From the IMG/VR virus record IMGVR_UViG_2663762648_000011: a stretch of DNA of 5,108 nucleotides. One strand, given 5' to 3'. Shown here piece by piece: positions 1-5,108 of the stretch (its first letter is position 1; each line of letters begins with the position of its first letter). A program made the position numbers and the translations under genes. Under the pieces are notes generated by a model. The model was not told where the DNA came from. It worked only from the letters and a program-made list of their open reading frames with translations, and did no database searches. This DNA is from a virus (lineage: Duplodnaviria; Heunggongvirae; Uroviricota; Caudoviricetes).

Positions 1-2
1 CC

Positions 3-1385
3 ATCACGTCGGCAAACATCGACCGTCTGCGCTTTACCTTCGGTGTGCAGGCACTGGTGGAAACCACCTCAAAGGGGGACCGGAATCCGTCGGAAGTCCG
101 TCTGCTGGTTCAGATACAGCGTAACGGTGGCTGGGTGACGGAAAAAGACATCACCATTAAGGGCAAAACCACCTCGCAGTATCTGGCCTCGGTGGTGGTG
201 GATAACCTGCCGCCGCGCCCGTTCAATATACGGATGCGCAGGATGACGCCGGACAGCACCACAGACCAGCTGCAGAACAAAACGCTCTGGTCGTCATACA
301 CCGAAATCATCGATGTGAAACAGTGCTACCCGAACACGGCACTGGTCGGCGTACAGGTGGATTCGGAGCAGTTCGGCAGCCAGCAGGTGAGCCGTAATTA
401 TCATCTGCGCGGGCGTATTCTGCAGGTGCCGTCGAATTATAACCCGCAGACGCGGCAATACAGCGGTATCTGGGACGGAACGTTAAAACCAGCATACAGC
501 AACAACATGGCCTGGTGTCTGTGGGATATGCTGACCCACCCGCGCTATGGCATGGGGAAACGTCTTGGTGCGGCAGATGTGGATAAATGGGCGCTGTATG
601 TCATCGGCCAGTACTGCGACCAGTCAGTGCCGGACGGCTTTGGCGGCACGGAGCCGCGCATCACCTGTAATGCGTACCTGACCACACAGCGCAAGGCGTG
701 GGATGTGCTCAGTGATTTCTGCTCGGCGATGCGCTGTATGCCGGTATGGAACGGGCAGACGCTGACGTTCGTGCAGGACCGACCGTCGGATAAGGTGTGG
801 ACCTATAACCGCAGTAATGTGGTGATGCCGGATGATGGCGCGCCGTTCCGCTACAGCTTCAGCGCCCTGAAAGACCGCCATAATGCCGTTGAGGTGAACT
901 GGATTGACCCGGATAACGGCTGGGAGACGGCGACAGAGCTTGTGGAGGATACGCAGGCCATTGTCCGTTACGGTCGTAACGTCACGAAGATGGATGCCTT
1001 TGGCTGTACCAGCCGGGGGCAGGCACACCGCGCCGGGCTGTGGCTGATTAAAACGGAACTGCTGGAGACGCAGACCGTGGATTTCAGCGTGGGTGCTGAA
1101 GGGCTTCGTCATGTACCGGGCGATGTCATTGAAATCTGCGATGATGACTATGCCGGTATCCGCACCGGCGGGCGCGTGCTGGCGGTGAACAGCCAGACCC
1201 GGACGCTGACGCTCGACCGTGAAATCACGCTGCCATCCTCCGGCACCACGCTGATAAGCCTGGTTGACGGGCAGGGGAATCCGGTCAGCGTGGAGGTCCA
1301 GTCCGTCACCGACGGCGTGAAGGTAAAAGTGAGCCGTGTTCCTGACGGTGTTGCTGAATACAGCGTGTGGGGGCTGAAGCTGTAG
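3..1385 (+). CDS. J: Phage tail tip / host-specificity protein J (lambda gpJ family), internal fragment A; 5' end lies upstream of the window; the TAG at 1383..1385 is an artefactual stop at the junction with an inverted fragment
   Basis: Frame 0 (codons start at 3, 6, ...) is open from the window start to 1382. Translation ITSANIDRLRFTFGVQALVETTSKGDRNPSEVRLLVQIQRNGGWVTEKDITIKGKTTSQY...MAWCLWDMLTHPRYGMGKRLGAADVDKWALYVIGQYCDQSVPDGFGGTEPRITCNAY...EYSVWGLKL matches my recollection of lambda J. The ORF track gives 45..1385 from an internal GTG. In the other copies (B, C, D) GLKL is followed by [16 protein letters not shown], so the stop here is not the natural end. Confidence 0.88.
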   Translation: MTSANIDRLRFTFGVQALVETTSKGDRNPSEVRLLVQIQRNGGWVTEKDITIKGKTTSQYLASVVVDNLPPRPFNIRMRRMTPDSTTDQLQNKTLWSSYTEIIDVKQCYPNTALVGVQVDSEQFGSQQVSRNYHLRGRILQVPSNYNPQTRQYSGIWDGTLKPAYSNNMAWCLWDMLTHPRYGMGKRLGAADVDKWALYVIGQYCDQSVPDGFGGTEPRITCNAYLTTQRKAWDVLSDFCSAMRCMPVWNGQTLTFVQDRPSDKVWTYNRSNVVMPDDGAPFRYSFSALKDRHNAVEVNWIDPDNGWETATELVEDTQAIVRYGRNVTKMDAFGCTSRGQAHRAGLWLIKTELLETQTVDFSVGAEGLRHVPGDVIEICDDDYAGIRTGGRVLAVNSQTRTLTLDREITLPSSGTTLISLVDGQGNPVSVEVQSVTDGVKVKVSRVPDGVAEYSVWGLKL

Positions 1386-1505
1386 CGGAACGGCGCGCCA
1401 TCATCCGGCATCACCACATTACTGCGGTTATAGGTCCACACCTTATCCGACGGTCGGTCCTGCACGAACGTCAGCGTCTGCCCGTTCCATACCGGCATAC
1501 AGCGC
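1383..1505 (-). repeat. 123-bp inverted duplicate of window positions 731..853 (an internal J segment in reverse orientation)
   Basis: The reverse complement of 1383..1505 is identical to 731..853 (gcgctgtatgccggtatggaacgggcagacgctgacg...gcgccgttccgcta). On the minus strand it encodes the J residues MPVWNGQTLTFVQDRPSDKVWTYNRSNVVMPDDGAPFRYS (seen in the minus ORF 1148..1498). It is bounded by the end of copy A and a single N at 1506. Confidence 0.9.
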
Positions 1506-1506
1506 N
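1506..1506. other. Single ambiguous base (N) at the junction between the inverted fragment and J segment B
   Basis: An n is present in the sequence; homology switches from rc(731..) to 918.. exactly here. Confidence 0.95.
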
Positions 1507-2556: not shown

Positions 2557-2648
2557 NNNNNNNNNNNNNNNNNNNNNNNNNNNNNNNNNNNNNNNNNNNN
2601 NNNNNNNNNNNNNNNNNNNNNNNNNNNNNNNNNNNNNNNNNNNNNNNN
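2557..2648. other. Assembly gap (92 N)
   Basis: Uninterrupted run of n. Flanking sequences are homologous J segments, so the true junction sequence is unknown. Confidence 0.97.
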
Positions 2649-3447
2649 CGGGCGCGTGCTGGCGGTGAACAGCCAGACCCGGACGCTGACGCTCGACCGT
2701 GAAATCACGCTGCCATCCTCCGGCACCACGCTGATAAGCCTGGTTGACGGGCAGGGGAATCCGGTCAGCGTGGAGGTCCAGTCCGTCACCGACGGCGTGA
2801 AGGTAAAAGTGAGCCGTGTTCCTGACGGTGTTGCTGAATACAGCGTGTGGGGGCTGAAGCTGCCGACGCTGCACCAGCGATTGTTCCGCTGCGTGAGTAT
2901 CCGTGAGAACGACGACGGCACGTATGCCATCACCGCCGTGCAGCATGTGCCGGAAAAAGAAGCCATCGTGGATAACGGGGCGCACTTTGACGGCGACCAG
3001 AGCGGCACGGTGAATGGTGTCACGCCGCCAGCAGTGCAGCATCTGACCGCAGAAGTCACCGCAGACAGCGGGGAATACCAGGTGCTGGCCCGCTGGGACA
3101 CGCCGAAGGTGGTGAAGGGGGTGAGCTTCCTGCTTCGCCTGACCGTGGCAGCGGATGACGGCAGTGAGCGGCTGGTCAGCACGGCCCGGACGAAGGAAAC
3201 CACTTACCGCTTCACACAACTGGCTCTGGGGAACTACAGGCTGACAGTCCGGGCAGTAAATGCGTGGGGGCAGCAGGGCGATCCGGCGTCGGTATCGTTC
3301 CGGATTGCCGCACCGGCAGCGCCGTCGCGGATTGAGCTGACGCAGGGCTATTTTCAGATAACCGCCACGCCGCATCTTGCGGTTTATGATTCGACGGTAC
3401 TGTTTGAGTTCTGGTTCTCGGAAAAGCGGATTGCGGATATCAGGCAG
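2649..3447 (+). CDS. J: Host-specificity protein J, internal fragment C (5' part identical to allele A, 3' part identical to fragment B)
   Basis: Frame 1 (codons from 2650) is open. Positions 2649..2862 are identical to A 1169..1382; positions 2996..3447 are identical to B 2105..2556. Translation [100 protein letters not shown]...[11 protein letters not shown]. Confidence 0.85.
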
Positions 3448-3458
3448 NNNNNNNNNNN
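3448..3458. other. Assembly gap (11 N); reading frame changes across it
   Basis: Run of n. The J frame is frame 1 upstream and frame 0 downstream; the frame-1 ORF from the track terminates at 3480 just after the gap. Confidence 0.97.
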
Positions 3459-5108
3459 AACAGCCAGACCCGGACGCTGACGCTCGACCGTGAAATCACG
3501 CTGCCATCCTCCGGTACCATGCTGATAAGCCTGGTTGACGGAAGTGGCAATCCGGTCAGCGTGGAGGTTCAGTCCGTCACCGACGGCGTGAAGGTGAAAG
3601 TGAGCCGTGTTCCTGACGGCGTTGCTGAATACAGCGTGTGGGGGCTGAAGCTGCCGACGTTGCGCCAGCGCCTGTTCCGCTGTGTGAGTATCCGTGAGAA
3701 CGATGACGGCACGTATGCCATCACTGCCGTGCAGCATGTACCGGAAAAAGAAGCCATCGTGGATAACGGGGCGCACTTTGACGGCGACCAGAGCGGCACG
3801 GTGAATGGTGTCACGCCGCCAGCGGTGCAGCACCTGACTGCCGAAGTCACCGCAGACAGCGGGGAATATCAGGTGCTGGCGCGCTGGGACACGCCGAAGG
3901 TGGTGAAGGGGGTGAGCTTTATGCTTCGCCTGACCGTGGCAGCGGATGACGGCAGTGAGCGGCTGGTCAGCACGGCCCGGACGACGGAAACCACATACCG
4001 CTTCACGCAACTGGCGCTGGGACGGTACACGCTGACAGTCCGGGCGGTAAATGCCTGGGGACAGCAGGGCGATCCGGCGTCGGTATCGTTCAGGATTGCC
4101 GCACCGGTAGCACCGTCGCGGATTGAGCTGACGCCGGGCTATTTTCAGATAACTGCCACGCCGCATCTTGCGGTTTATGATCCGACGGTACAGTTTGAGT
4201 TCTGGTTCTCGGAAACGCGGATTACCGATATCAGGCAGGTTGAAACCACAGCCCGCTACCTTGGCGCGGGGCTGTACTGGATAGCCGCCAGTATCAATAT
4301 CAAACCGGGCCATGATTATTACTTTTATATCCGCAGTGTGAACACCGTTGGCAAATCGGCATTCGTGGAGGCCGTCGGTCGGGCGAGCGATGATGCGGAA
4401 GGTTACCTGGATTTTTTCAAAGGCAAGATAACCGAATCCCATCTCGGTAAAGAGCTGCTGGAAAAAGTTGATCTGACGGAGGATAACGCCAGCAGACTGG
4501 ATGAGTTTTCGAAAGAGTGGAAGGACGCTAACGATAAATGGAATGCGATGTGGGGCGTCAAAATTGAGCAGACCAAAGACGGCAAACATTATGTCGCGGG
4601 TATTGGCCTCAGCATGGAGGACACGGAGGAAGGCAAGCTGAGCCAGTTTCTGGTTGCCGCCAATCGTATCGCGTTTATTGACCCGGCAAACGGGAATGAA
4701 ACGCCGATGTTTGTGGCGCAGGGCAACCAGATATTCATGAACGACGTGTTCCTGAAGCGCCTGACAGCCCCCGCCATTACCAGCGGTGGCAGTCCTCCGG
4801 TATTTTCCCTGACATCAGACGGAAAGCTGACCGCTAAAAATGCGGATATCAGTGGTAGTGTGAATGCGAACTCAGGAACGCTCAACAATGTCACGATTAA
4901 CCAGAACTGTACGATTAAGGGCATGCTGGAGGCGACCCAGGTCAGAGGGGATTTCGTTAAAGCTGTATCAAAAGCCTTCCCGAAAAAAGTCGGTACGTGG
5001 GGTAACACGGAAACACCAGACGGTACGGTTACAGTCACCATCAGCGATGATCATAACTTTGACCGCCAGATTATTATTCCGCCCATTATTTTTAACGGTA
5101 TAGCGTAT
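3459..5108 (+). CDS. J: Host-specificity protein J, fragment D (third allele); covers the fibronectin-III-like module and the distal part of the protein; 3' end lies beyond the window
   Basis: Frame 0 is open for all 550 codons from 3459 to the window end (translated by hand, no stop). It is absent from the ORF track only because no stop lies in the window. Translation [38 protein letters not shown]...[229 protein letters not shown]... matches the distal half of lambda J as I remember it. Confidence 0.88.

Follow-up and report, generated by a model that had tools for sequence, protein, structure and literature searches.

The viral record IMGVR_UViG_2663762648_000011 (IMG/VR; Caudoviricetes) raises the question of whether a stretch of DNA in which pieces of a single tail gene return again and again represents a contiguous locus or a product of assembly. 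Hereafter, the whole stretch analysed (5,108 nucleotides) is called the window. Its segments were placed by ungapped BLAST on gene J of phage lambda, a single ORF of 3399 nt (15505-18903 of NC_001416). The results showed that lambda-type J accounts for all of the non-N sequence, with each segment aligning gaplessly at 93-96% nucleotide identity. GpJ domains of Pfam were hit colinearly in all four long segments (E-values 1e-10 to 1e-43), and the series seen across the pieces keeps the natural order FNIII-A_GpJ, Phage-tail_3, Ig_J, Ig_J_second, Phage_Tail_Tip and Ig_GpJ_C. An earlier note on the same DNA had assigned the entire window to one gene family, which both BLAST and Pfam bear out, and had correctly described natural J as one reading frame of about 3.4 kb, with about 1130 codons in lambda (NC_001416).

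The arrangement of these pieces departs from that of a natural gene. Segment A (1-1382, plus strand, window frame 2) corresponds to J nt 308-1689 with 96.2% ungapped identity to lambda, contains FNIII-A_GpJ and Phage-tail_3, and is open in the J frame. At its end, forward J is fused to reverse-complement J at an exact 10-nt microhomology, GCTGAAGCTG (1373-1382), and a 123-nt inverted piece follows (1383-1505, minus strand), which equals J 1160-1038 and is a 100% reverse complement of 731-853; the short inverted insertion claimed before is thereby confirmed. After a single n at 1506 comes segment B (1507-2556, plus strand, frame 0; J nt 1225-2274), which is separated by a 92-N scaffold gap (2557-2648) from segment C (2649-3447, plus strand, frame 0; J nt 1476-2274), itself separated by an 11-N scaffold gap (3448-3458) from segment D (3459-5108, plus strand, frame 2; J nt 1495 to about 3144). 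In gene coordinates, each long segment after A reaches back behind the end of the one before it: from J 1689 (end of A) to J 1225 (start of B), from J 2274 (end of B) to J 1476 (start of C) and from J 2274 (end of C) to J 1495 (start of D). Of the four restarts, three fall on N runs and the fourth is the direct fusion on the 10-nt microhomology, so that the BLAST positions and the N-run coordinates agree with the earlier description of restarts at upstream J positions. Overall, J nt 308-3144 is represented 1.7-fold, via overlapping pieces of three alleles in different frames. Whereas gpJ occupies one ORF of about 1100-1160 codons, the long segments as laid out stand in frames 2, 0, 0 and 2, and J is interrupted by three gene restarts as well as by a TAG at 1383-1385 (plus strand); each piece alone is open, and no piece as arranged in the window can encode the J protein. 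Long antisense ORFs, such as 1471-3375 (minus strand), were rejected as a side effect of a GC-rich coding strand being read across the N runs.

How many gene copies the window contains was judged from the overlaps. Segments A and C are 100% identical over the 214 nt that they share (A 1169-1382 and C 2649-2862) and, because all 214 positions agree, belong to one allele, with C as the continuation of A. The identity of A to B is 95.5% over 465 nt and to D 94.9% over 195 nt; B and C agree at 97.4% over 799 nt, while over 780 nt D matches B at 93.7% and C at 93.8%. The differences between B and C stop at B coordinate 2104, after which their last 452 nt are identical down to the same terminal base. 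Given the A/C and B/C overlap identities and the roughly 6% divergence of D, the window contains at least three J alleles (A+C, B and D) rather than four or five independent copies. These alleles differ mainly at synonymous third-codon positions, with synonymous versus non-synonymous codons numbering 16 versus 5 for B/C, 28 versus 16 for B/D and 30 versus 13 for C/D, and no stop or frameshift was found within the pieces in 4.9 kb. Such a synonymous bias, together with the intact frames, fits pieces of intact, selected genes and not decayed fragments.

Close relatives of every segment were found in finished genomes. Among complete E. coli genomes and 80 IMG/VR loci, the best identities were 98.0% for A, 98.7% for B, 97.2% for C and 99.1% for D, and none of the 5426 complete genomes carried an exact match to an allele (best 98.0%, 98.6% and 99.1%). 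A single J gene in E. coli N51 is 98.6% identical to segment B and is also the best match of A; in finished genomes, A and B find their best match in one and the same natural J gene, along which they are colinear. For segment D, the J gene in E. coli 14EC007 gives 99.1% identity; over all of its 1650 nt, D is 98.0% identical to mEp460_ev081 and 96.1% to phage 434, its alignment to lambda J stops at J 2970, and it carries Ig_J, Ig_J_second, Phage_Tail_Tip and Ig_GpJ_C. By these alignments, its distal end is classed as of the phage 434/mEp460 type and not of the lambda type. The corresponding gene forms one undivided CDS in each of two finished E. coli genomes, 3480 nt long in one and 3300 nt in the other, and finished relatives carry it in the context L-K-I-J-lom-stf, of which the window itself holds J only.

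The junction at 1382/1383 is the only one not hidden by N and was examined closely. The inverted repeat around it extends to 137 nt (731-867 versus 1369-1505), with 13 of 14 positions matching over 1369-1382 and exact agreement over 1373-1382; the junction 10-mer has a minus-strand copy at 854-863 and a plus-strand copy at 1373-1382. Since this 10-mer alone occurs 5 times against 0.01 expected, the observed J homology lies far beyond chance. The fusion creates the in-frame TAG at which ORF 45..1385 terminates, and B, C and D have CCG at the equivalent site, so this stop is no natural gene end. The sequence of the inverted piece recurs with 100% identity in many unrelated J loci, it originates from a conserved block of J (J 1001-1200 is among the most conserved stretches), and other draft contigs break within J at 1032, 1144, 1180 and 1222. 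The piece probably stems either from a short contig of collapsed repeats inserted back to front or from a chimeric join. As for the junction in other sequences, none of the 5426 complete E. coli genomes covered the stretch 1250-1505 at 80% or more, a scan for the exact 37-mer spanning 1382/1383 gave no match in three public collections (genome, viral and metagenome contigs), and exact-protein look-ups of ORF 1531-3480 and ORF 3-1385 returned no entry. The mark of a real tandem duplication, a junction reproduced in independent gapless sequence, was thus found in none of the 5426 complete genomes, and all 80 independent IMG/VR J loci were free of restarts, inverted J pieces and N.

Overall, these data indicate that the window is very probably an artefact of assembly and scaffolding and corresponds to no contiguous DNA. 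The scaffolded mosaic of J from a draft assembly proposed earlier is thus supported by the restarts on N runs, the overlapping segments, the identity pattern and the absence of the junction elsewhere. From this anatomy we infer the read-level mechanism, the responsible program and the location of the copies in a single genome, as follows. The sample contained at least three near-identical but distinct J copies (A+C, B and D as alleles 1, 2 and 3), and contigs would have halted inside J because short reads cannot be phased where the copies are identical. Read pairs in the shared stretches may then have tied the parallel contigs together, and a scaffolder would have set them in series with N runs instead of stacking them, while a small J piece from a conserved block may have been joined in the wrong orientation by the 10-nt overlap, which would give the spurious in-frame stop. 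Failure of short reads to resolve paralogous prophage sequence has been reported (PMC5359411, PMC9278759), and 11 of the 80 IMG/VR J loci lie on contigs that end inside J, several of them close to boundaries seen here (one break at J 302 near J 308, the first J position of the window, and one at J 1222 near J 1225, the first of B).

The segment ends were further compared with site polymorphism in a panel of 31 natural J alleles. A model in which ends adjoin SNPs at branch points fits the start of D (J 1494, directly before it, is G in 21 and A in 10 alleles), the n at J 1224, the base with which C begins (J 1476) and also the end of A, which lies 33 nt past the last A/B and A/D difference. That all ends are branch points of a de Bruijn graph was rejected, as the panel shows no variation at J 1690 or J 2275; the simple graph-branch model thus leaves some ends unexplained, and we therefore claim no particular assembler or k. 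The n at 1506 either joins two scaffolded pieces whose gap was estimated at zero or below, or stands for an ambiguous base at J 1224. Some scaffolding programs may mark a gap of zero or negative length by one n, a convention for which a literature search returned no confirmation, and reading of the sequence showed that what would follow the inverted piece in a natural gene is not homologous to the start of B. Because J 1224 is polymorphic among natural alleles (C in 29, T in 2 of 31), the n may be an ambiguous consensus base instead of a gap.

A question raised from this reading is whether the alleles came from one genome. The alleles most probably derive from several lambdoid prophages of a single Escherichia or Shigella genome; this part of the earlier proposal stands as the favoured origin and not as the only one, for a mixed-strain or metagenomic sample gives the same picture. 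The same artefact built from J alleles of different strains or phages, as in a metagenome or a contaminated culture, is possible though unlikely. The window contains nothing that binds the alleles to one chromosome, the lack of an exact match in the 5426 complete genomes agrees with a mixed origin, and J-bearing contigs also occur among metagenome-derived IMG/VR entries (3300... ids). Against this, several J copies per E. coli genome are normal (median 3, maximum 14 J-like places), and paralogues within a genome show the same long exact runs amid sequence of roughly 90% identity, such as the exact runs of up to 410 nt that two J contigs from a single isolate have in common. One genome is therefore a sufficient and simpler source.

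That the order is physically real, with J fragments of a degenerate prophage remnant tandemly duplicated, one of them inverted, and the N runs being small sequencing gaps, is very improbable. The gapless finished genome of E. coli FY26 (NZ_CP101741.1) does show K-I-J restarts from different alleles, and microhomology such as that at 1382/1383 is found at genuine illegitimate recombination junctions; however, among 4390 records the FY26 junction occurs just once, and the window junction is found in none of the 5426 complete genomes, nor does it or any restart appear in the 80 IMG/VR loci. Except for the 1382/1383 fusion, the restarts coincide with N runs, and independent duplications would be needed for B and C to share the end at J 2274 and differ at their other ends. 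Tandem copies would also have to be 100% identical over 214 nt and 452 nt yet 5-6% divergent alongside, and the fragments bear a purifying-selection pattern without decay. We give very little credence to the related idea of a real remnant whose tandem array of partial J copies from different alleles serves as a possible reservoir; if true, such an array, of which the gapless FY26 record might be another case, could supply segments for recombinational tail-tip exchange between co-resident lambdoid prophages. Programmed variation, whether by silent J cassettes for host-range switching or by a diversity-generating retroelement, can be dismissed as hardly conceivable: the window does contain repeated, slightly differing copies of the part of a tail gene leading to the receptor-binding end, but the repetition covers the conserved Ig-like middle of J (J 1225-2274) and not the receptor-binding C-terminus, the joints are marked by N runs, the window holds J only, with no reverse transcriptase or recombinase gene, and the substitutions are spread over all classes without the adenine bias of a retroelement.

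The structure of the window is thus an ordinary draft-assembly artefact and no biological feature. Both the stop at 1383 (TAG) and the seeming four-fold repeat arose in assembly, and the record would mislead counts of J genes, calls of J pseudogenes or truncations, inference of duplication and prophage typing; its value lies mainly in quality control. The usable biology is confined to two points, namely at least three distinct lambda-type J alleles and, in one of them, a 434/mEp460-type distal end.

Compared with known systems, the window resembles lambda J (gpJ, NP_040600.1, the central tail fibre or tip attachment protein) in homology and domain order, but J in lambda and in finished prophages is one ORF of about 3.3-3.5 kb, whereas here it lies in overlapping pieces of three alleles. 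The FY26 record (NZ_CP101741.1, 4152099-4161715) likewise shows tail-tip pieces of different alleles restarting at earlier positions; unlike the window it is gapless, includes K and I, has no inverted piece and carries a junction unique to that record. Being deposited as a gapless "complete" sequence, it indicates that restart mosaics are at least deposited without N runs, which counts against an artefact.

Closer in kind are the false duplications described by Ko et al. 2022 (PMC9516828), with near-identical adjacent copies and intervening gaps on one scaffold, a paper that also cites Kelley and Salzberg 2010 on false duplications in scaffolded draft assemblies; the window would be a bacterial counterpart of such gap-separated copies. 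[quoted passage not shown] In the window, assembly gaps likewise lie between copies on one scaffold, the N runs coinciding with restarts, and the copies overlap (A/C 214/214), merging of which restores a normal single structure; the likeness is drawn on these gap and overlap features, the others used in that work being read depth and discordant pairs. The allele-specific differences between the copies correspond to the "heterotype" of that study and the identical B/C tails to its "homotype", although its copies are diploid haplotypes and those of the window stem from paralogous prophage genes, or from different strains, within a bacterial sample. Finally, short-read assemblies of STEC and other E. 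coli fragment at paralogous lambdoid prophages for the same cause, mosaic repeats that reads do not span (PMC5359411, PMC9278759); there the usual result is a contig break, whereas in the window the broken pieces were also chained into a scaffold.

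The lambda tail-tip gene J is 3399 nt long (15505-18903 of NC_001416), and ungapped BLAST was used to place the window on it. Five pieces of J were found, delimited by N runs at 1506 (one n), 2557-2648 (92 N), and 3448-3458 (11 N) and by one direct fusion at 1382/1383. Piece A (window 1-1382) corresponds to J 308-1689 with 96.2% identity to lambda J, followed by an inverted piece (1383-1505; J 1160-1038, 98.4%), B (1507-2556; J 1225-2274, 93.3%), C (2649-3447; J 1476-2274, 94.4%), and D (3459-5108; J 1495-2970 and beyond, 93.4%). The Pfam matches in the window were GpJ domains only, with their natural order kept: FNIII-A_GpJ and Phage-tail_3 in A; Phage-tail_3, Ig_J, and Ig_J_second in B; Ig_J and Ig_J_second in C; and Ig_J, Ig_J_second, Phage_Tail_Tip, and Ig_GpJ_C in D. 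The N runs, BLAST placement, and domain order, together with the exact reverse complementarity of the inverted piece to window 731-853, therefore show that the earlier note, which had described a mosaic of J, was right in every particular, coordinates included. As arranged, A, B, C, and D lie in window frames 2, 0, 0, and 2, and no piece is able to encode a working J protein.

The overlaps between the pieces were then compared. Over its final 214 nt (1169-1382), A matches the opening 214 nt of C (2649-2862) at 100% identity; against B it has 21 differences in 465 positions, and against D 10 in 195. A and C are thus overlapping parts of a single allele. The 21 differences between B and C all fall in the initial 347 nt of overlap; the remaining 452 nt are identical, and both pieces end on the same base, J 2274. 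The divergence of D from both B and C is about 6% along the full overlap. Because three distinct sequences are present for J 1495-1822, at least three J alleles, namely A+C, B, and D, were present in the sample. The differences are in the main synonymous third-position changes (synonymous versus non-synonymous codons: 16 versus 5 for B/C, 28 versus 16 for B/D, and 30 versus 13 for C/D), and neither stops or frameshifts within the pieces themselves nor an adenine bias among the substitutions between copies was found. This substitution pattern points to pieces of intact, selected genes rather than decaying fragments or a mutagenic repeat system.

Of the four restarts, three are masked by N, and the fourth, at 1382/1383, switches strand. 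On the left the sequence reads as forward J, matching B, C, and D at the equivalent gene position; on the right it follows the reverse complement of 816-853. The sequence GCTGAAGCTG is common to both sides (10/10, or 13/14 when extended), so the two were joined by way of this short overlap, and the TAG that A meets at 1383-1385 exists solely through the fusion. A 256-nt query over the junction reached coverage of at least 80% in none of 5426 complete E. coli genomes, and its halves were matched in 4438 of them; the exact 37-mer over 1382/1383 was not found in GTDB species genomes, IMG/VR, or JGI metagenome contigs. The inverted piece originates from J 1038-1160, which falls in a block (J 1001-1200) that is among the best conserved in J. 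It occurs at 100% identity in many unrelated loci, and other draft contigs break in this conserved block at J 1032, 1144, 1180, and 1222. It has the appearance of a small collapsed repeat contig joined in the wrong orientation, although it may equally come from a chimeric read or template switch. The n at 1506 corresponds to J nt 1224, where 29 of 31 natural alleles have C and 2 have T; there is no homology between its flanking sequences. Rather than marking a gap, it may stand for an ambiguous base at a position where co-assembled copies differ.

Next, natural J loci were examined. The finished genomes that best match A (98.0%) also best match B (98.6%), and they do so with one and the same J gene; A and B map to 2023588-2024969 and 2024505-2025554, respectively, of E. 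coli N51, within one 3480-nt gpJ CDS neighboured by L, K, I, and lom. D is 99.1% identical to the J gene of E. coli 14EC007 (L003, NZ_CP024131.1 2425361-2433010); this closest natural relative is a pseudogene, its 3' end cut by an IS1A insertion. Over its full length, D shows 98.0% identity to phage mEp460_ev081 and 96.1% to phage 434, and its alignment with lambda J ends at J 2970, leaving the distal part from window ~4935 unaligned. The receptor of phage 434 is OmpC, not LamB; given this 434/mEp460_ev081-like distal end, the receptor specificity of the D allele may be unlike that of lambda. In a set of 80 IMG/VR loci carrying close relatives of B, no N and no restarting or inverted J matches were found, and 11 contigs start or stop within J (L006, L009, L021, L051, L052, L055, L060, L073, L074, L075, and L081). 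Several of these breaks group within the conserved block at J 1030-1225, and another is at J 302, suggesting that J has recurrent assembly break points. With the window starting nearby at J 308 and ending at ~J 3144, the contig starting at J 302 also suggests that the 5108 bases are possibly one entire orphan scaffold of J repeat contigs alone.

Overall, the restarts at N runs, the overlapping alleles, and the absence of the junction from all 5426 genomes and of restarts from all 80 loci strongly support an assembly artefact rather than biology, as the earlier note had proposed. J paralogues, or the J genes of co-occurring strains, would have exact common stretches exceeding short-read length; the assembler would break contigs there, read pairs within these stretches would tie parallel contigs together, and the scaffolder would line them up end to end, separated by gaps of estimated size. 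Both halves of this have been described in the literature: short reads are unable to resolve prophage paralogues in E. coli (PMC5359411, PMC9278759), and assembly gaps separating duplicate pairs within a single scaffold are typical of false duplications (PMC9516828). Places similar to A number a median of 3 and a maximum of 14 per complete E. coli genome. Graph branch points would account for the start of D, directly after polymorphic J 1494, for that of C, whose first base is polymorphic J 1476, and for the end of A, 33 nt past its last difference from B and D. They do not account for J 1690 and J 2275, both invariant in the 31-allele panel, so no particular assembler is indicated. J alleles from a mixed sample would yield an identical artefact, a possible though less probable source.

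Far less probable is a real tandem array of J fragments, which would require independent duplications with one common end (J 2274), perfect identity adjoining 5-6% divergence, fragments without decay, and N runs landing by chance on every joint. The junction was seen in no finished genome. In its favour, the gapless record of E. coli FY26 has a comparable K-I-J restart mosaic (L004, NZ_CP101741.1 4152099-4161715), consisting of J nt 307-598, K-I-J(1-446), a partial K-I, and J(1-1364) with a restart at J 1130. Since these pieces show 86-97% identity to reference J, they come from different alleles, and the J 1364/1130 junction gave a single-piece match in FY26 alone among 4390 records; this mosaic may be a genuine one-off rearrangement, or else an assembly error in a record labelled 'complete genome'. 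A programmed cassette or DGR system was rejected on the substitution spectrum, the region involved, and the lack of any other gene in the window.

Under the artefact reading, the window should not be taken as a guide to copy number or gene order, nor as evidence for the truncation at 1383 or for the inversion. In one isolate, two contigs with J (L022 and L051) show 90.5% identity and match exactly over runs reaching 410 nt, the same texture that B and C have in their identical 452-nt tail.
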